A DNA stretch of 10,766 nucleotides from a bacterium (GTDB lineage: Bacteria > Zhuqueibacterota > Zhuqueibacteria > Oceanimicrobiales > Oceanimicrobiaceae): positions 1-10,766 of the forward strand of contig JBHHXN010000176.1 of assembly GCA_046757025.1 (NCBI GenBank), read 5' to 3'. The translations under genes and the position numbers were made by a program. Below, in pieces: positions 126-10,766 of this stretch. Positions within the stretch are counted from its first letter, which is position 1; the number at the start of each line of letters is the position of its first letter. Below the pieces are notes generated by a model, which was not told the DNA's origin, made no database searches, and saw only the letters and a program-made list of their open reading frames with translations.

Positions 126-1655
126 TTAAAGCTTCGCCCACTTTCTGCCATCTCGCTGAATAAACTCCTCCGCTGCGTATGGCCCCCAGGTGCCGGCGCG
201 GTAGGGATGGATGTGCGGCGCATCTTTACCGTTCCAGCCTTGCAGTACGCCGTCCACCGCGCGCCAGGCCGCCTCCACTTCGTCGTGGCGGATGAACAGG
301 GTGCTGTCTCCCAGAATGGCGTCCAGAATCAACCGCTCATAAGCCTCTGGCTGCTCGGCATGAAACACGTCGCGATAATTGAACTCCATGTCGGTGGGTT
401 GCAAAATCATGCTCGGTCCCGGCACTTTCAGCCCAAAAGAGAGCCGAATGCCTTCGTCCGGCTGCACCCTCAGAGAAAGCCGATTGGGCTGCATGCTGTC
501 GCCCTCCTTGTGTTCAGCGTGTTCGGAATGACCAAAAAGCGCCAGCGGTGGCTGCCGAAATTCGATGGTGATTTCGGTCAACCTTTCCGCCAAAGCTTTT
601 CCGGTGCGCAGATAAAACGGCACGCCCGCCCAGCGCCAATTGTCCAAAAAGAATTTCAACGCCACAAAGGTTTCGGTGACCGAATTCGGATGCACGTTGG
701 TTTCACTTAAATAATCCCCAATTGAACGTTCGGCAATGTGGCCACTGGTGTATTGTCCCCGCAGGGAAAATTGCGCCACTTCTTCCACTTTGATGGGCCG
801 CAGAGCGCACAGCACTTTGACTTTTTCATCGCGCACCGCGTTGGGCGCAAACGAGGCCGGTGGTTCCATGGCCATGAGCGCTAAAAGCTGCAGGATATGA
901 TTCTGCACCATATCTCGAAGCGCACCGGATTGATCGTAGTACCCGCCGCGGCCTTCCACACTTACGGCTTCGGCCACGGTAATCTGCACGTGGTCGATGT
1001 AGCGGCGATCCCACAGGGGCTCGAAAATGCTGTTGCCGAATCGAAACGCCATGATGTTCTGCACGGTTTCTTTGCCGAGATAGTGATCGATGCGGTAAAC
1101 CTGGCGCTCGTGTATTTTTGTCAGAATTTGTCGATTCAAATTTCGTGCAGATTCGAGGTCCCGGCCAAACGGTTTTTCAATGATCAAGCGTGTCCAGCGG
1201 CTTTCATCGTGGGCGTCGGCCATCAGCCCGGATTCAACCAGAAAATTGACGACATCCAGAAATACGTTGGGCGGTGTGGAAAGATAGAACAAACGATTGC
1301 CCATTCCGGGCGCCACCCCCATTCCCTCATCGAGATTATGCAACAATTTCTGTAATTGCGAGAAACTCTGAACTTGATCATAATTGCCGCACTGATAGAA
1401 CAGCCGCTGAACAAATCCCTGCAACACTCTCGAACTACTTTGAGGGTGGGAACGCGAAAACGCCAGTATGGCTTCCTGCATTTCAGCTCGAAATTGCTGG
1501 TGCGATTTCTCCCGACGGGCAAAACCGACGATGACGGTTTTTTCGGGCAGCAATTTCTCAACCTCAAGCTGGTACAGAGCGGGAATGAGCTTACGCCGGG
1601 TTAAATCACCGGAGGCTCCAAAAATAACGATGGACGTGGAGATTTTCTGCTTCAT
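126..1655 (-). CDS. zwf: Glucose-6-phosphate 1-dehydrogenase (NADP+), 509 aa
   Basis: Rossmann IFGASGDL, GFARR (NADP 2'-phosphate Arg), EKPFG, substrate motif RIDHYLGKE, catalytic DMVQNH, RWAGVPFYLRTGK. Start moved from the track's 1679 to ATG at 1655 (MKQK...), which has GAGGT 7 nt upstream. Confidence 0.97.
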   Translation of the reverse strand: MKQKISTSIVIFGASGDLTRRKLIPALYQLEVEKLLPEKTVIVGFARREKSHQQFRAEMQEAILAFSRSHPQSSSRVLQGFVQRLFYQCGNYDQVQSFSQLQKLLHNLDEGMGVAPGMGNRLFYLSTPPNVFLDVVNFLVESGLMADAHDESRWTRLIIEKPFGRDLESARNLNRQILTKIHERQVYRIDHYLGKETVQNIMAFRFGNSIFEPLWDRRYIDHVQITVAEAVSVEGRGGYYDQSGALRDMVQNHILQLLALMAMEPPASFAPNAVRDEKVKVLCALRPIKVEEVAQFSLRGQYTSGHIAERSIGDYLSETNVHPNSVTETFVALKFFLDNWRWAGVPFYLRTGKALAERLTEITIEFRQPPLALFGHSEHAEHKEGDSMQPNRLSLRVQPDEGIRLSFGLKVPGPSMILQPTDMEFNYRDVFHAEQPEAYERLILDAILGDSTLFIRHDEVEAAWRAVDGVLQGWNGKDAPHIHPYRAGTWGPYAAEEFIQRDGRKWAKL

Positions 1656-1679
1656 TAAATATACCTCATTGGAATACAA

Positions 1680-2426
1680 TCAGCTCTGTCTTGTCTTCTC
1701 GAAAAGGAGGGCGGCTGCGGAGTTGTCAAGCATCCACATTAGATTGCCTGGAACCGGCAGCACCAGCGACGCCGGCAATTGTTTGCTCGGGCCATCCAAA
1801 TTCAGCACACGCTGCACGATCTCGGATTTAGAACTACCTGCAACCAGAAAAATCACCGTGCGAGCCGCGTTCAGCACCGGCAGCGTCAGGGTAATTCGGT
1901 TAGTGTCGAGCCGTGAGACAAAGACCGAAGTGACCAGCTTGTTTTTTTCATCAATGGCTTTGGCGCCCGGAAAAAGCGACGCCGTGTGGCCGTCTTCGCC
2001 CAGACCGAGCAGGATGAGATCAAATCTCGGCGGCGACTCGTTGAACTGTTCAAGTAAAACTTGCTCATATTCAAGCGCCGCTTGCTCAGGTTCGATTTCC
2101 CCGCGCATTCTGTGAACATTCGCCGGCGGAATCTCGATTTGATCCAGCAACGACTCCTTTACCATTCTAAAATTGCTGTCGGGATGGTCGGGCGGAACCG
2201 CGCGCTCGTCTCCCCAGAAAAGGTGCACTTGCGGCCAGTCCACACGGTTTTGATAAAGCCGGCTCGCCAGCAACGAATAGACGTCACGGGGTGTGTTGCC
2301 GCCGGCCAGAGCCACGCTGCAGTCACCCCACCGCTGCCTTGACAGGTTGATTATCTCTACTATTTTTTCGGCGGCCATGGTTACCAGGGCCGGCTTTGAG
2401 GGATAAATGTCAATCTCTTGTTCCAT
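1680..2426 (-). CDS. pgl: 6-phosphogluconolactonase (DevB/Pgl type), 248 aa
   Basis: ALAGGNTP, LFWGDERAVP..SNF, FDLILLGLGEDGHTASLFP and RITLT motifs; directly upstream of zwf (24-nt gap). Confidence 0.96.
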   Translation of the reverse strand: MEQEIDIYPSKPALVTMAAEKIVEIINLSRQRWGDCSVALAGGNTPRDVYSLLASRLYQNRVDWPQVHLFWGDERAVPPDHPDSNFRMVKESLLDQIEIPPANVHRMRGEIEPEQAALEYEQVLLEQFNESPPRFDLILLGLGEDGHTASLFPGAKAIDEKNKLVTSVFVSRLDTNRITLTLPVLNAARTVIFLVAGSSKSEIVQRVLNLDGPSKQLPASLVLPVPGNLMWMLDNSAAALLFEKTRQS

Positions 2427-2447
2427 GCAAGAACTCGCAATCGTAAG

Positions 2448-3182
2448 TCATCTTTGCTCAATTATTTTAGCCGCCACGGAACCCAGATTCGCAGGGTCAT
2501 CCACAATCCTTCCCTTTTCGATCAGATCGCTTTTATGAACCGTCTTGCGTGTAAAATCGGTGGTCACCACAATGCAGCGCATGCCAGCGGCAAGCGCTGC
2601 TTTTACTCCGGCTGGCGAATCTTCAATCACCAGACAATTAGCGGCCTCGGCCTGCAATTGGCGGGCAACCAAAAGGTAAATTTCAGGGTCGGGCTTGCCG
2701 TTTTCGACATCATCCCGCGACGCAATAAAATCGAATTGATCTCGCAACTTCAAGATATCCAGCACCCGATTGACCTGGGAACAATAGGACATGGTGGCCA
2801 GGCCGGTCTTGAGATTGTTTGCGCGAACGTAATTTAACAATTCGACATTATACGGACACCGGTGGTCGTGCAAGATCTTCGAATCGGCAAGCATTTGCTC
2901 ATAGAATCGCAATCGAATTAGCAAAAACGCCTGCCACGGAGTTAGTACGTCAAACTCGCCCATGCGAACCCGTACTGCTTCCTGCAATTCGAAACGCTGA
3001 AGTAGAGCCTCCGCTACCTCCTGACGAGAAAGCCCGACCACATCTTTAAAGGCCTCCACAAACTGTTTCTCGGTTACGTGACCGGGAGAAAGCTCCAAAG
3101 CAGCGCGGGCATACGAAATCGCCTTCAATCTTTCCGTCTGAACCAGAGTGCCATCGAGATCAAAAATCACCGCCTCGATCAT
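2448..3182 (-). CDS. HAD-superfamily hydrolase, subfamily IA (beta-phosphoglucomutase / sugar-phosphatase-like), 244 aa
   Basis: Motif I FDLDGT, helical C1 cap, motif II ATMS, motif III GKPDPEIY, motif IV IEDSPAG. Its start overlaps the upstream PGI stop (ATGA at 3182-3179). Substrate cannot be assigned from sequence. Confidence 0.9.
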   Translation of the reverse strand: MIEAVIFDLDGTLVQTERLKAISYARAALELSPGHVTEKQFVEAFKDVVGLSRQEVAEALLQRFELQEAVRVRMGEFDVLTPWQAFLLIRLRFYEQMLADSKILHDHRCPYNVELLNYVRANNLKTGLATMSYCSQVNRVLDILKLRDQFDFIASRDDVENGKPDPEIYLLVARQLQAEAANCLVIEDSPAGVKAALAAGMRCIVVTTDFTRKTVHKSDLIEKGRIVDDPANLGSVAAKIIEQR

Positions 3183-4939
3183 GCCAGTACCTGCTCCAGT
3201 CGCTTCAGGCCAGCCAGCACATCTGTACCAAGATGAAATCGAATGACTTTTCTACCGGCGTCCAGCAGCGCCCGGCGGTCGCCCAGAGCCTGAGCCAGTT
3301 TCAACACGCCGAACGAAATGGATGAAGCCTCAGCGCCAGCTTTGTCTGGAATATCCACATCCTCCAACGAATCGGCCGTGATTTGGATGAACAGGCCGTT
3401 GCCGGCATCGCCTTTGTGGAGCTGACCCGTGGAATGCAAAAACCGCGGTCCAAAGCCAACCGTGGTGGGTAATTTGTATTTGTCCCGTAAACGAAGACGA
3501 ATTTTGTGCAGCGCTGCCCGGGCCTCCTCTGTCGGATGGACATAAGCTTGCAGCGCAAGGTAATCTCCCTTTTTGCCGGCTCCATCCGCAGTGCTGGCGT
3601 TGGCCAGAAACTGACTCATGGCCTGTTTCAGATTGCTTACGGAAAGATCCGTGAATACCGAAATGCCGCCATCTTCAAAAGTCGGCGAAGGCTGCGGCAG
3701 CTCACCCTGCTCCTGGTAAGTTTCTACCATTTTGCGCGCCTGTACTTTCGCGGATTCGACATTGGGTTGGTCAAAAGGATTGACGCGCAAAATATGTCCC
3801 GCCACCGCGGTGGCCAGTTCCCAGCGAAAAAATTCGCCGCCGAGATCGTACACATCCTGCAGGAGTAGCTGCACCACGGGCTGATCAGCTCGTTTAATTT
3901 TATCGATTTTTTCATCGAGGCAGTCGTCGCCGGCCAACTTCAAATACACAAAAAGTCGATCCAGGCCATAAAATTCTGGAGCCGCCAAGTCTTCGCCGTT
4001 CACCGGTAAAATGCCGGTGCCGTCTTTACCAGTGCTTTCTGCGACAAGCTGTTCCGCCCACACTCCAAAATGCGCCAGCGCCGGCGAAGCCACCAGCGTC
4101 AATTTGTCCCGGCCGGCGTTGGCCAGTGCCCCCATGATGGCGCCCAGCCATACGGCCGTGTTGTCGCCGTGGAGGAGGTCATTTTCAGCACGGCAATTTT
4201 CTGCCATGCGGTAGGTACGTTCCAGCAGTCTGTTCAAGTCCAGGCCCAGCAAACCAGCCGGCAGCAAACCAAAATAGGACAGTACAGAATAGCGGCCGCC
4301 GATGTTCGGGTCGTTGAGAAAAGTTTCGCGAAACCGATACTCGTGGGCTAATTCCACAAGCGAGCTGCCGGGATCGGTGATGGCGATAAAATGTTCGCCC
4401 ACTCTTTCCCAACCGAGTGCTTTCACTACCAGATTAAAACAATACTTAAAAAACGACAGCGTTTCCACGGTGCCGCCGGATTTGGTGGAGACGATAAACA
4501 GCGTTTTTTGAAGATCAAGGTTTTTTGTGTGAGCCAAAACCGCCTGCGGATCCGTGCTGTCCAGAACCGCCAGATCCAGATAGCCGGATTTCACACCAAA
4601 CGTGGTCTTAAAAACTTCCGGCGCCAGACTGGAACCGCCCATTCCCAAAAGCAAGGCATGAGTAAAACCGTCCTGGCGCAGCGATTCCACAAATGAAACA
4701 ACGCCGGCTATTTTTTCAGTCATCCACTGGGGACTGCGCAGCCAGCCGAGCCGGTTGGTGATTTCTGCCGGTTCCGATTTCCAGATGGTATGATCCAGGG
4801 ACCAGATGCGCGCGATGACGTTTTCTTCCTGCATTTTTTGCAAGGTTTGCAGCACCTTTGGTTGCAGCTCGTGCAAATTTACCACAAAGCTTTGGGAGGT
4901 CAGCGGTTCAGCTTCTAAGTTTTCCTTCAAAAGTGCCAT
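3179..4939 (-). CDS. pgi: Glucose-6-phosphate isomerase resembling the C-terminal module of Tal-Pgi fusion proteins, here stand-alone, 586 aa
   Basis: RLGWL, LLGMGGSSL, STKSGGTVET, AITDPGS, IGGRYSVLS, EQLVAESTGK, NPFDQPNVESAK, GPRFLHSTGQLHKG. SD-like AAAGGA 5 nt before ATG 4939. Confidence 0.9.
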   Translation of the reverse strand: MALLKENLEAEPLTSQSFVVNLHELQPKVLQTLQKMQEENVIARIWSLDHTIWKSEPAEITNRLGWLRSPQWMTEKIAGVVSFVESLRQDGFTHALLLGMGGSSLAPEVFKTTFGVKSGYLDLAVLDSTDPQAVLAHTKNLDLQKTLFIVSTKSGGTVETLSFFKYCFNLVVKALGWERVGEHFIAITDPGSSLVELAHEYRFRETFLNDPNIGGRYSVLSYFGLLPAGLLGLDLNRLLERTYRMAENCRAENDLLHGDNTAVWLGAIMGALANAGRDKLTLVASPALAHFGVWAEQLVAESTGKDGTGILPVNGEDLAAPEFYGLDRLFVYLKLAGDDCLDEKIDKIKRADQPVVQLLLQDVYDLGGEFFRWELATAVAGHILRVNPFDQPNVESAKVQARKMVETYQEQGELPQPSPTFEDGGISVFTDLSVSNLKQAMSQFLANASTADGAGKKGDYLALQAYVHPTEEARAALHKIRLRLRDKYKLPTTVGFGPRFLHSTGQLHKGDAGNGLFIQITADSLEDVDIPDKAGAEASSISFGVLKLAQALGDRRALLDAGRKVIRFHLGTDVLAGLKRLEQVLA

Positions 4940-4994
4940 GGGATTCCTTTACATTTCGAGATAACTCATTTGAGTCGATTCAATTTTGCTGTAC

Positions 4995-7016
<2,022 letters not shown>

Positions 7017-7020
7017 TGAA

Positions 7021-7030
7021 CTCCTCCTTT
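7021..7030 (-). promoter_or_regulatory. Strong Shine-Dalgarno site for tkt (TTG start)
   Basis: Plus-strand ctcctccttt reads AAAGGAGGAG on the minus strand, followed by TTCA then TTG. Confidence 0.8.
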
Positions 7031-7108
7031 ATAGATTTTGAACGACCTGGCTGAATAAGCGTTGTGTTTATCAGAGCCGCCATTTTTATCATTTTTCTTG
7101 TACTTCAT

Positions 7109-7251
7109 GATTCTGTTGATTAAGTCTATTTTTCCATCAATCTTCATGCTGGGCGGAGTAGAAGTATGAATAAAAAACAACAGGTTACGGCATTTTCCAA
7201 TTTCACGTCGGGACTCAGACTGAAGGTTTCTTCGACTTAATCAACAGAGTC
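7109..7251. mobile_element. 143-bp non-autonomous MITE-like element with 18-bp terminal inverted repeats
   Basis: Left end GATTCTGTTGATTAAGTC (7109-7126); right end GACTTAATCAACAGAGTC (7234-7251), whose reverse complement GACTCTGTTGATTAAGTC matches at 17/18. Flanked by AT on both sides. No transposase inside. Confidence 0.6.
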
Positions 7252-7532
7252 ATTCATACTAATAATCAATTTCTAAATTAAAAAATCAAGAAAGAATCTC
7301 ATCACCAGGTTCTTATTACAAAAATATTATTTCTCAAAATGTGAATAATCCATATTTGGCTATCCAATTCGCACGGCTGAAGTTTGAGTTAAGTGGGTAA
7401 CCGTAATTCCTGTAACGTAAATTTGATCCCGAATATTTTTACATCGGGTATCAAAATATCTACATGAACAAAAGCCGGAAAAACTCCTCAAATGCTTTCG
7501 AACTCATTTTTACCACGGGATTTCAACTGGCA

Positions 7533-8390
7533 TCAGAACATCACTTCTACCAGCGTAACCAGAGCAACCAGCACAAAAAGTATGGCCAGCCCGCGCTCCA
7601 AAACCCGTTGCGAAATTCGGTTGGAAACAATCGAGCCTAACTGTCCGCCGATAATTACGCCTGGTACGGTGAAAATCACCAGATTTAAAACCGTATTCAA
7701 AGTATCCCCGCCCATTTGGAGGAACTTAACAAAATGTCCAGCCGACGCGACCAGCGCGGTGATGGCGACGACAAATACGCTGGAAGCCACCGCCACCCGA
7801 CTGGGAAGACGACAGCGCTGCAGCAGGAAATAACCGTTTAGTTCTCCCTGGCCGGTGGAGATCATCCCGATGAAAAGCCCCCCGATACCGGCAAAGATAC
7901 GACCTTCGGTTCGATTGCACACCGTATAACGGATTTCTTCGCCATCACGCGTAACCAGGCATGACTCGGCGTTTTCGCCGCCGTACTCTTTCTCGATGGC
8001 GTCGTCCAGGCCGGCGACTTCTTTCTGATCTGGCGCCCTCAGAAAACTGATGGCAATGGCTAACAAACCGCCCCCCAGGATGATTTTCAGAATTTCTGAA
8101 GGGACAAATCCTGAAATCCAGGTCCCGAGCAAAGCCATGGGAATCGTGACCGTAAGCAGGACCATGCCCAGTTTATAGTCGATCAACCGTTTACGCCCGT
8201 AGGCAAACAAACCGCTGGCAAACCCAAAAACTTCCGTAATCAGGCCGGTGCCGATGGCAATCTCTGGAGGCAGCCGTAAAGTTAGAATGAAAAGCGGGGT
8301 AAAAAAGGTGGCGCCTTCTACCCCTGAAGCCATGGCAATGGTGGCAATAACAATGGAAATGGGAAACATAAACCAATATTCTAAGGTCAT
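7533..8390 (-). CDS. TSUP family (TauE/SafE, DUF81) integral membrane transporter, 285 aa
   Basis: Two repeated halves with Gly-rich motifs (ASGVEGATFFTP; GMISTGQGELNG), AIGTGL and AVASS helices, IDYKLG, GVIIGGQLG; about 8 hydrophobic segments. Start at ATG 8390 (MTLEYW) with GAGGA 5 nt upstream rather than 8513. Confidence 0.88.
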   Translation of the reverse strand: MTLEYWFMFPISIVIATIAMASGVEGATFFTPLFILTLRLPPEIAIGTGLITEVFGFASGLFAYGRKRLIDYKLGMVLLTVTIPMALLGTWISGFVPSEILKIILGGGLLAIAISFLRAPDQKEVAGLDDAIEKEYGGENAESCLVTRDGEEIRYTVCNRTEGRIFAGIGGLFIGMISTGQGELNGYFLLQRCRLPSRVAVASSVFVVAITALVASAGHFVKFLQMGGDTLNTVLNLVIFTVPGVIIGGQLGSIVSNRISQRVLERGLAILFVLVALVTLVEVMF

Positions 8391-8597
8391 TTTAATCCTC
8401 AAATAATTTTTTAACGGGGATGTTCGAGCAACATGAACAGAAGGTTGTCGGTGAATGCCGGGCCTTTGGTCATTTCCAGGTGCTCTGTAAAGACAAATAA
8501 AACCTGTGCCCATTTGATGGGTGAATACGAAGCGGGCGTCTTATGTTTTTCAGCGCAGCCGTTGAATGGCAGCCAGGAAGCCATCCGCAGCAAGAAT

Positions 8598-8744: not shown

Positions 8745-10568
8745 TTAAAACGGCAAACTCACACCGCCGGTAAATATCAAGCCATCCTGGCCGATGGCGC
8801 CGTTGGCCACAATGCCGATGTTGGGTCTATTCAATACTCTCATACTCATGCCGGGATTGATGTTAAAATCACCCTCAAAATCCGTACTGTTGAACACCTG
8901 TCCAAAATCCAGAAACGGTGCAATTTCTAAATCCATTGGAAATCCCATCATGACGATATGCATGGCCTGGTAGCGCAACTCCATGCTGCCAAAAACCGCA
9001 TGCTGTCCGTAAAACCGGCCCGCGTCAAATGCCCGCAAAGTCGCTTCACCGCCGAGGGTCGCCTGATCGAAAAATGGAATATTTTCGCTGGTGGTCAAAG
9101 TCCAGCTATTTCTGAGCAACAAAGTAAATTTCTGATCCACGGTAGAAAAATATTTTCTAAAATCGAATGAAAAGCGACCGTAATTTGAAACCGGTTCAAA
9201 ATCGCTGGTCACCTGGTCGTATTCCGCCGTCAGTTTCACATAAATTCCCGCAGAAGGGGTAAATTCCTGGTTGCGTCCGTCGTAAACAATGTTTACTCGT
9301 TCACCAACCACGGTGGCGCCCGCAATTCCAGGTACGTTTGCAAAATCTTCTTGGTTGATGGTGAAGGGCACTTCGGCCGCCAGACGGTCGGCGCCGCGTT
9401 TGACATCCACTGAACGAATTTTACCGCCCACCGAAAAGCGCAGATTATTGACCGGCAGCCAGTAAAGATCCAAATAGCCGCCAAACTCTTCGTGGGTATA
9501 ATTGCTTTCATCTTCCTCATCCGTGCTCCCGCCGATTCCATAAAACCGGTAGCGCGGGTCCTGAAATGCGTTGATTTGCAATTCATAACCCACACGATCA
9601 TTTTTACCTACAGCTAAATTTTCATGATGGAATTGAACCTGCCGGTTGCGGTCTTCAGAAAACTGCGCTGAAAACCAGTAATTAACATACGCTGCCGGAC
9701 AACTCACCACATCCACGGCCACGGTGGCTCCAACATTTTCGTTGTAATATCCGCGCACATCGAAGGTACCGGTCATGATACCTTCGCGCGTCACGTTCAT
9801 CAAAGCCATGGCGCCGCCAATGCTCTGGCCGTTATTTTCCGTGGAACCTATGAACGGATGCCAGACCGTCTGAATGTGTTTACCATGATTTCCCGGATCA
9901 AAAAACAATCGGTGCAAAAATTTTGGCAACGGCCCATTTTCATCCCAGGTATGAAACATGGTTTTCATGGGCTGTGGCAAATTCAGCCGCTTTTCCTGAA
10001 CAAAAAAATCAGCAGACACCGGGCCCTTTGACGGTTCGGGAATTATTACGGCCCCGTTGCCTGAGTTGGCACGGACTGTAACCGTAGTTGAATACGCTTC
10101 ATCGACATGAGTCGTCAGATGTCCGGCGTTTAATCCGGGGGTGTAGGTGATTTTTACCGCAATTTGATAGCTGCCTGTCGCGGCGTTTTCAGCGACTTTA
10201 AATGGCACCATGACTTTGATTTCCCCGGTAAAAACACGGGTAATACCCAAATGCACCGGCACCCCTCGCACTTCTGGCTGAGGGAAGCGGGGTTTTTCAA
10301 AACTAAAATTCTGTTGTTTTTGCACGTTTATAATGGTGGCGGCAGGTATGCGCGCGCTACGGTCATTTTCACCCAGCCAGAAACCCCGTGGAATTCGGAA
10401 AGTGATCACCAACGCCGATGTCTGTCCGGCAGCCACATGCGCATCCACAGAACTCATAGAAATCTCTATTGGATTTTCAACTGTTTGTGAAACGCCTCTT
10501 GAAGTAAGAAAAACAATTTCGAGAACAATTAACAAAAATCTTAATAAGGATTGATTTAATATTTTCAA
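8745..10568 (-). CDS. Secreted outer-membrane protein: signal peptide + DsbD-N-like Ig domain (no Cys) + Omp85/BamA-TamA-type beta-barrel, about 607 aa
   Basis: Hydrophobic N-terminus ending GVS|Q. The C-terminal ~375 aa show amphipathic strands, YDGRNQEFTPSAG, FDFRKYF, loop-6 lid LGG...LRAF..GRF (9027-9038), ELRY, PFLDFGQVF and a terminal Phe. Probable start is TTG 10568, with GGAGG 5 nt upstream. Confidence 0.82.
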   Translation of the reverse strand: MKILNQSLLRFLLIVLEIVFLTSRGVSQTVENPIEISMSSVDAHVAAGQTSALVITFRIPRGFWLGENDRSARIPAATIINVQKQQNFSFEKPRFPQPEVRGVPVHLGITRVFTGEIKVMVPFKVAENAATGSYQIAVKITYTPGLNAGHLTTHVDEAYSTTVTVRANSGNGAVIIPEPSKGPVSADFFVQEKRLNLPQPMKTMFHTWDENGPLPKFLHRLFFDPGNHGKHIQTVWHPFIGSTENNGQSIGGAMALMNVTREGIMTGTFDVRGYYNENVGATVAVDVVSCPAAYVNYWFSAQFSEDRNRQVQFHHENLAVGKNDRVGYELQINAFQDPRYRFYGIGGSTDEEDESNYTHEEFGGYLDLYWLPVNNLRFSVGGKIRSVDVKRGADRLAAEVPFTINQEDFANVPGIAGATVVGERVNIVYDGRNQEFTPSAGIYVKLTAEYDQVTSDFEPVSNYGRFSFDFRKYFSTVDQKFTLLLRNSWTLTTSENIPFFDQATLGGEATLRAFDAGRFYGQHAVFGSMELRYQAMHIVMMGFPMDLEIAPFLDFGQVFNSTDFEGDFNINPGMSMRVLNRPNIGIVANGAIGQDGLIFTGGVSLPF

Positions 10569-10667
10569 AATAACCTCCAATGATCATTTTGGTGATGAAT
10601 ATTTTAAGTCCGGGCAAGTGTTTTCATTCCAAAGCCCTATATACCGTTATCCAATTAGTTCAGAAAA

Positions 10668-10726
10668 TGTCATTCTAAAGGAGCCCTTCAACGTAGCTCA
10701 GGATGAACTCCGCGACTGAAGAATCT
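10668..10726 (+). repeat. Nested REP-like element with TGTCA tag, upstream of the Omp85-type gene
   Basis: TGTCATTCT...AGAATCT outer arms, GGAG (10680-10683) / CTCC (10708-10711) inner stem enclosing CCCTTCAACGTAGCTCAGGATGAA. Resembles GTCATTCTGA...GAAGAATCT and CCCTTCGAC..GCTCAGG repeat units as I recall them. Confidence 0.5.
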
Positions 10727-10766
10727 CAGACCACCAAACTGTATTCATTCAATCACAAGCTCAGTA

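Follow-up and report, generated by a model that had tools for sequence, protein, structure and literature searches.

A POTRA-less Omp85-type barrel, predicted to be 18-stranded, fused to a DsbD-N-like domain without catalytic cysteines

We analysed a 10,766-nucleotide stretch of bacterial DNA (the window) whose minus strand carries, at 8745..10568, a gene for a fusion of a DsbD-N-like domain with an Omp85-type barrel, 607 amino acids (aa) long when read from TTG 10568. The minus-strand frame is open over 8745-10580, 611 codons up to a TTG at 10580; residue numbers below refer to this 611-aa translation (P0001), from which 4 is subtracted for the likely 607-aa protein. TTG 10568 is the likelier start, because GGAGG stands 5 nt upstream of it and 91% of aligned relatives have Met in its column, which agrees with the start chosen in a preliminary description of this DNA. 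Residues 5-31 (10488..10568) are predicted to form a Sec/signal peptidase I (SPI) signal peptide, from a hydrophobic core and a conserved cleavage site (A or S followed by Q-T). Gln occupies position +1 in 81 of 104 rows and Ser or Ala position -1 in 75 of 104, and we infer cleavage between S31 and Q32, giving a mature protein that starts at Gln32. The window protein has no lipobox Cys.

A protein search gave 111 matches among 7,995 scored candidates. Leaving out the self-match and seven partial proteins, 103 full-length relatives (40-79% identity) were aligned, and an AlphaFold2 model of the whole chain was made from the resulting 104-row alignment (predicted local distance difference test score (pLDDT) 91, predicted template modelling score (pTM) 0.86). 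In the model, a beta-sandwich (39-170) is joined by a linker bearing two short helices to 18 long strands between 235 and 608. The layout first described, with signal peptide, N-domain, linker, LRAF-bearing barrel and terminal Phe, was borne out by Pfam, model and alignment. The concern that the gene might be an assembly chimera was ruled out: contigs of all three sequencing runs, which come from a single study and are possibly the source of the assembly, span the domain junction, and the same architecture recurs in the 103 relatives.

The Ig (immunoglobulin-like) N-terminal domain (residues 32-170, 10071..10487) was assigned using Pfam, Foldseek, VIA, a sequence profile and alignment. Pfam DsbD_N matched the whole protein under its cut-off (residues 49-145, E=0.0017), and the N-domain alone (PF11412) with E=1.1e-4 and 22.6 bits, also below the cut-off of 25; 32 of 38 family N-domains gave a match at E<=0.1. 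Folded alone, the domain formed an Ig sandwich (pLDDT 90.5), for which the top 10 Foldseek rows were all DsbD N-domains. VIA placed DsbD-alpha first (Z 10.8, root-mean-square deviation (rmsd) 3.2, 112 residues aligned) and ScsB at Z 10.7. The fold alone is not decisive, because an unrelated glycosidase Ig domain scored Z 10.5, within 1 Z unit of DsbD-alpha. A profile for which 38 family N-domains were the sole input gave matches in 73 of 167 genomes, the best true three-domain DsbD being found at E 1e-15. Its weaker matches were mostly open reading frames (ORFs) of ~600 aa; when six ORFs were scanned (five of these matches and the DsbD of the window's genome), five proved to be complete DsbDs and one a short frame with the N-domain only. 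It is this sequence profile that decides the identity: the domain is homologous to the DsbD N-domain, as originally proposed. When the N-domain profile was run against PDB sequences, no DsbD came up.

In a joint alignment, the YQ-GCxxxxC of DsbD falls on YTPGLNAGHL of the family N-domain. The former active-site hairpin, TYTPGLNAGHLTTH (residues 145-158, 10107..10148), is aligned to YQ-GCxxxxC-xxP of true DsbDs, and a conserved TPGLNAGxL stands at the CxxxxC position in 130 of 130 family rows. Cys is absent at columns 149, 150 and 155 in all 130 distinct rows, whereas the catalytic pair is present in 11 of 11 aligned DsbD N-domains. An active DsbD-like reductase domain was therefore rejected. 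The best-conserved N-domain motifs, FWLG, GVPVHxG and TYTPGLNAGxLxTH, lie around the former active site. From DsbD structure together with the alignment, we take the conserved GVPVHxG loop (residues 106-112, 10245..10265) to be the equivalent of the DsbD cap loop. Five of the 130 rows carry a Cys pair at alignment columns 91 and 133, off the former active site, probably a structural disulfide. Two short forms were seen: P0177 (161 aa) passes directly from N-domain and linker to a terminal strand, GGIGLPF, and P0119 is missing part of the N-domain and the linker; each is either an allele with a deletion or an error of assembly. A search for short N-domains standing alone found 4 matches among 61 candidates, and they resemble fragments or deletion forms.

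The C-terminal part of the protein (residues 235-611, 8748..9878) is an Omp85-type barrel by Pfam, model, structural search and covariation. Pfam Omp85 (PF01103) matched residues 325-567 with E=2e-12 and 47.7 bits against a cut-off of 24, and BamA and TamA led the Foldseek and VIA rankings (Z up to 26.4), in line with the Omp85-type barrel of the preliminary description. The lid motif LRAF (residues 515-518, 9027..9038) is a variant of the Omp85 loop-6 motif as defined in PMC11358297. In the family the motif reads xRAF or xRGF, and R516 is kept in 129 of 130 rows. Its lid-lock partner FxDxG is represented by FLDFG (residues 556-560, 8901..8915), with F556 and D558 in 130 of 130 rows and G560 in 122. 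The terminal Phe is present. No POTRA family was matched in a Pfam scan of the window protein and the N-domain is an Ig sandwich, so that the reported lack of POTRA domains holds. A BamA orthologue was rejected: the NCBIfam BamA model TIGR03303 scored 36.5 bits against a cut-off of 297, four of four relatives also fell under the cut-off, and a canonical BamA is encoded elsewhere in the genome. No NCBIfam model reached its cut-off, and the BamA of the genome gave no significant match in a profile comparison (E 0.4). The genome holds 17 Omp85 matches, among them the full BamA, a patatin-type form and a 1008-aa form, as well as an intact three-domain DsbD. Because the genome has its own BamA and DsbD, the fusion gene is regarded as accessory.

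The barrel had been expected to have 16 strands; the model, a structural ladder and covariation instead predict 18. In a wide structural search, alignments with Sam50, Toc75 and a PelBC chain started at model residues 269-271, those with OmpG and CymA at 295-296, that with BrkA at 328, and those with AlgE, maltoporin, Wzi and Occ porins at 227-237. The strand counts of these templates are 16 for Sam50, Toc75 and PelBC, 14 for OmpG and CymA, 12 for BrkA, and 18 for AlgE, maltoporin, Wzi and the Occ porins. Four barrel-only BamA rows paired BamA 423-426 with model 270-273; some BamA and TamA rows began at model 221-243 with a shifted register. In covariation over 249 rows (effective number of sequences (Meff) 143), 16 of the 17 consecutive strand pairs were the top 16 of 153 pairs. 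The pairs 235-248/251-263 and 251-263/269-280 ranked 3 and 7 in this set, and 11 and 14 when 37 poorly covered of 268 rows were dropped. Of two candidate closing seams, 269-280/600-610 ranked 17 and 15, and 235-248/600-610 ranked 33 and 20, of 153 pairs. As model and covariation share much of their input, they are not independent lines for 18 strands.

The profile of the first hairpin (residues 235-263, 9792..9878) fits beta1-beta2 of 16-stranded POTRA-less Omp85s, with 15.4 bits in L020, 4.8 in P0239 and 4.7 in C128; that of residues 269-296 (9693..9776) scored below 0 in all three. These scores, weak and from few relatives, suggest that the extra hairpin is an internal insertion at 269-296, for which no counterpart was found in 16-stranded relatives. 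The alternative that strands 235-263 were added at the N-terminus and plug the lateral gate is weakened by the fit to beta1-beta2. POTRA-less paralogues in the same genome, read by eye, have four strands before the loop-3 motif against six in the window protein. A hairpin-to-hairpin profile comparison for internal duplication found nothing. The same extra hairpin seems to be shared by a large barrel-only sister clade, including a barrel in a Nitrospira hopanoid operon. Transitions from 16 to 18 strands have been described among solved barrels generally (PMC6340704).

Between the two domains lies a Pro-rich linker (residues 171-234, 9879..10070; alignment and model), in which the model has just two helices, both short (205-208 and 217-225). 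Its end carries the motif H223-x4-D228-x3-H232-x-K234 (9879..9914), kept in 130, 130, 129 and 130 of 130 family rows respectively. These residues are specific to the family, the barrel-only outgroup being mostly without an aligned linker. An invariant Cys294 in SCPAAYxN (9699..9701), at a predicted periplasmic turn that ends the likely inserted hairpin, is present in 130 of 130 family rows and in 1 of 113 barrel-only rows, of which 104 have Tyr or Phe instead. The term cysteine-less, first applied to the N-terminal domain, thus fits the Ig domain and does not extend to the barrel. T264, M269, C294, Y298, N300, N437, E439 and F440 are fixed in the family and rare in the 113 barrel-only rows. 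The family-fixed residues are predicted to sit in the linker and at turns of one barrel face, periplasmic by strand order. When the model was superposed on full BamA, alignments began at model residue 66, 104-107, 152 or 224-228, paired with BamA 356-394, which we take to be the POTRA5 region. The Ig domain is thus predicted to occupy the place of BamA POTRA5 in the periplasm, and its former active-site face and the linker would lie under the barrel near Cys294.

This placement bears on the suggestion that the protein is a type Vd-like autotransporter showing its Ig domain on the surface as an adhesin. Ig folds are frequent in adhesins, and several rank just under DsbD in the fold search. Surface display is unlikely because the model puts the Ig domain in POTRA5 space; in addition, the family-specific invariant residues stand at predicted periplasmic turns, the Ig domain is constrained like a docking module rather than variable like a passenger, and the N-domain of PlpD, the type Vd prototype, is periplasmic, docked under its barrel (PMC11116518). 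The patatin domain and single POTRA that mark type Vd/PlpD proteins were found neither by Pfam nor in the model. We consider a surface adhesin very improbable, and the passenger reading of the preliminary description is accordingly disfavoured.

Alternatively, the protein may be an enzyme of the outer membrane in which C294, H223 or H232, and D228 form a putative Cys-His-Asp triad; its substrate would be a lipid, lipoprotein or peptidoglycan facing the periplasm, and the Ig domain would serve as a lid or bind the substrate. All three residue types are invariant and family-specific, and PlpD offers a precedent for an enzyme-bearing Omp85 that acts on inner-leaflet lipids (PMC11116518). The protein matches no enzyme fold or family, however, and no substrate-pathway gene is conserved nearby. 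We regard a catalytic role as unlikely.

A dedicated insertase or foldase for one or few outer-membrane protein (OMP) clients, in which the Ig domain would be a client-binding module (the first option of the preliminary description) in place of POTRA, leaves the invariant Cys and the His/Asp motif unexplained. In its favour, the lid-lock motifs are retained, the Ig domain overlays POTRA5, and strands 235-263 resemble a true beta1-beta2, so that the seam may still gate. The model also fits lateral-open BamA best (9co0, Z 25.5, rmsd 3.5; darobactin-bound 7nre, Z 21.1, rmsd 5.0), although two extra strands alone would give a better fit to open BamA. The BamA scores lie far under the NCBIfam cut-off. 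Among 75 loci of the family, which form 57 groups at 90% identity, another Omp85-type gene is nearby in 8 of 57 groups, but no client gene is conserved. An insertase appears rather unlikely to us.

By record title, the relatives come from KSB1, Calditrichota, Ignavibacteria, Rhodothermia, Saprospiraceae, Gillisia, Latescibacterota, Acidobacteriota and Myxococcota, to which a protein name adds Gemmatimonadetes; the rows nearest to the window protein are from KSB1, and no cultured family member was identified among the relatives. In its own phylum the gene is present in 10 of 21 genomes of its bacterial family and in 0 of 146 other genomes; three more barrel matches, of ~30% identity, belong to other Omp85s. 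In the ESM Atlas a single cluster matches; it has 92 members and is named only 'BamA/TamA family'. In four of four pairs compared, the proportion of synonymous differences (pS) was saturated (0.69-0.80), and the nonsynonymous proportion (pN) was 0.17-0.25 in the N-domain and 0.09-0.11 in the barrel; both parts are under purifying selection. A second copy in the same genome (G000:C328:1-1017, locus L084) is 83% identical, is cut by the contig start and keeps the SCP motif; one KSB1 copy (L025:9941-11792) is broken within its barrel into two reading frames.

A search of 1.84 billion representatives gave barrel-only proteins of ~400 aa as the closest relatives beyond the family, and the N-domain was absent from 99 of 99 of these tested. 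A quick tree of 75 rows, rooted at the midpoint, recovered the family as one clade (22 of 22 rows, support 100), nested in a 53-row clade (Shimodaira-Hasegawa-like approximate likelihood-ratio test (SH-aLRT) 100) with 26 barrel-only and five Nitrospira rows. In these sequence comparisons the fusion family is shown to have a single origin from barrel-only Omp85s. A distinct Omp85 subfamily, as suggested at the outset, is supported, and we found no description of it.

The closest described proteins are the noNterm (barrel-only) Omp85s (Heinz and Lithgow 2014, PMC4104836; Leptospira LIC12252/12254/12258, PMC11358297). They share the POTRA-less barrel, the loop-6 Arg motif, FxDxG and a coexisting canonical BamA; the window family adds a 140-aa DsbD-N-like domain, found in 103 relatives, and a conserved linker, and is predicted to be 18-stranded where the Leptospira barrels are reported to have 16 strands (PMC11358297). 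Relative to BamA and TamA, with which it shares best structural matches, lid-lock motifs and terminal Phe, it is POTRA-less, patchy in distribution, far under the BamA cut-off and predicted to have two extra strands. The N-domain has the Ig fold of DsbD-alpha and ScsB-alpha and detectable sequence homology to them, but it lacks the catalytic cysteines and is fused to an outer-membrane barrel rather than to inner-membrane and thioredoxin domains. A second Ig subdomain of ScsB, itself without a redox site, is proposed to modulate partner binding (PMC10907172). PlpD and the patatin-, WD40- and metallophosphoesterase-Omp85 fusions likewise join a non-POTRA N-terminal domain to an Omp85 barrel; here that domain is a pseudo-enzyme Ig fold, with no POTRA and no lipase motif found. 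In the TamA-TamB hybrid barrel, extra strands also pair into an Omp85 barrel of open-like geometry (PMC12800296), but there the strands of a partner protein fold into the lumen, whereas the two of the window family belong to the same chain and are predicted in the wall.

We tentatively favour, at somewhat short of an even chance, an accessory barrel that carries a dead DsbD domain as a cap over its periplasmic mouth and whose Cys/His site would serve soft-metal or thiol chemistry in envelope stress. The protein would belong to the Omp85 superfamily of the outer membrane but be distinct from the cell's own BamA, and its barrel, predicted to have 18 strands, would be capped on the periplasmic side by the cysteine-less DsbD-N domain. 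Cap, linker and barrel may together form a thiol- or metal-binding site around Cys294, which could bind a soft metal or undergo thiol chemistry and so gate or sense at the barrel mouth. The old partner surface of DsbD might recruit a thioredoxin-fold protein that resets the cysteine, and the site would then serve the handling of envelope redox or soft-metal stress. A bolder version, which we hold to be decidedly doubtful, is that an 18-stranded Omp85 took over the DsbD docking face, so that thioredoxin-fold proteins reduce Cys294 and the Dsb reducing pathway reaches a redox- or metal-gated channel in the outer membrane.

Within 6 kb of the family gene, thiol-redox motif genes occur in 12 of 57 groups (null mean 2.7) and metal or metalloid genes in 9 of 57 (null 1.4), and two control motifs in 0 of 57 each (nulls 3.0 and 1.6), in a post hoc test whose motifs were picked after viewing the loci and which used a one-genome null and related loci. 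The counts exclude a heavy-metal motif match at L039, which proved to be a false match to a radical-SAM protein. We treat this modest enrichment as a lead only. Several observations weigh against an accessory redox or metal site. About half of the redox matches come from one Ignavibacteria synteny block, and stress islands are a frequent location of accessory genes. In the window itself the fusion gene neighbours a TauE gene and pentose-phosphate genes, and no coherent non-Omp85 neighbour family occurs in more than 5 of 57 groups. The protein also keeps two features of working insertases, the lid-lock and the terminal Gly-Gly. The convergence of C294 with the His/Asp residues is read from superposition end-points only, and covariation between N-domain and barrel was noise.

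The single neighbour cluster that reached 8 groups is a chain of unlike proteins. The TauE/SafE-family permease gene downstream (7533..8513, minus strand; Pfam, homology from ATG 8390) adjoins the family gene in 4 of 57 groups and is not an obligatory partner. An operon for the pentose-phosphate pathway occupies 126-7016 on the minus strand (transketolase, a PGI-family protein, HAD hydrolase, 6-phosphogluconolactonase and G6PD), and an AT-rich gap of 34% GC lies at 7001-7500. Upstream of the fusion gene, 10676-10766 holds a multi-copy intergenic repeat (15 genome matches, ~10x contig depth), which we presume may be REP-like (repetitive extragenic palindromic); a promoter scan found 1 site where chance alone would give 5.9. 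Just downstream of the family gene, five Ignavibacteria-type loci (L019:12952-13329, L022, L133, L134 and L156) encode a small unannotated protein with the motif YxCxLC, and in five loci a 250-aa TPR protein is encoded beside the family gene.

Some neighbourhoods point towards lipids. The Nitrospira sister barrel lies in a cluster of the order shc-hpnG-like-mlaE-mlaF-mlaD-mlaC-Omp85-DUF3187-dxs-ispG (L052:4004-15555, and most of L052-L083; Pfam on L052 only); an inositol-lipid synthesis block is upstream of the family gene in 3 of 57 groups, and mlaEFD-like genes in two loci. The family might accordingly be where a lipid-transport route, passed down from barrel-only ancestors, terminates in the outer membrane, and a periplasmic carrier would dock on the Ig domain. 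Against this, the squalene-hopene cyclase family is present in 2 of 21 genomes of the bacterial family and not in the window's genome, and the two MlaC-domain genes of that genome lie on another contig with TolC-like and MMPL/RND-like genes. Lipid transport in general is, in our judgement, quite unlikely, and hopanoid export by the DsbD-N/Omp85 family was not supported, given the scarcity of the cyclase. The Nitrospira barrel-only sister aligns over the same six N-terminal strands and occupies the place where MlaA is expected. MlaC domains are found in 21 of 21 genomes of the bacterial family, usually twice; at L160:6361-12720 (G000:C4) an MMPL/RND-like gene, a ~450-aa MlaC-domain fusion, a TolC-like gene and MlaC stand in a row, the TolC-like and MMPL/RND-like names being given from sequence inspection.

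A literature search, with most subscription journals outside its reach, found neither the DsbD-N/Omp85 architecture nor an 18-stranded bacterial Omp85. The available text of a survey of ten Omp85 subfamilies names WD40, patatin, metallo, lipo and noNterm forms and does not mention DsbD (PMC4104836); its supplement gave 0 matches for DsbD, a weak negative since 'Nitrospira' also gave 0. Omp85/BamA barrels in Mla or hopanoid operons go unmentioned in the accessible portions of PMC10665443 and PMC12324291. The family is real and conserved, an apparently undescribed variant of the Omp85 kind, with the predicted extra hairpin and the relocated cysteine as its most striking traits.

POTRA-less Omp85 fusions of many kinds already exist, and any function of this one is putative. 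To our knowledge, Omp85 barrels are all regarded as having 16 strands, and most of them as insertases or translocases fed through POTRA domains. A conserved 18-stranded family, if true, would mean that the Omp85 fold can grow by a hairpin, and would let one ask, on a natural example, whether lateral gating survives widening of the barrel. The exchange of the two cysteines of DsbD for one invariant barrel Cys would likewise be a clear-cut example, open to experiment, of how a redox domain found new use at the outer membrane.

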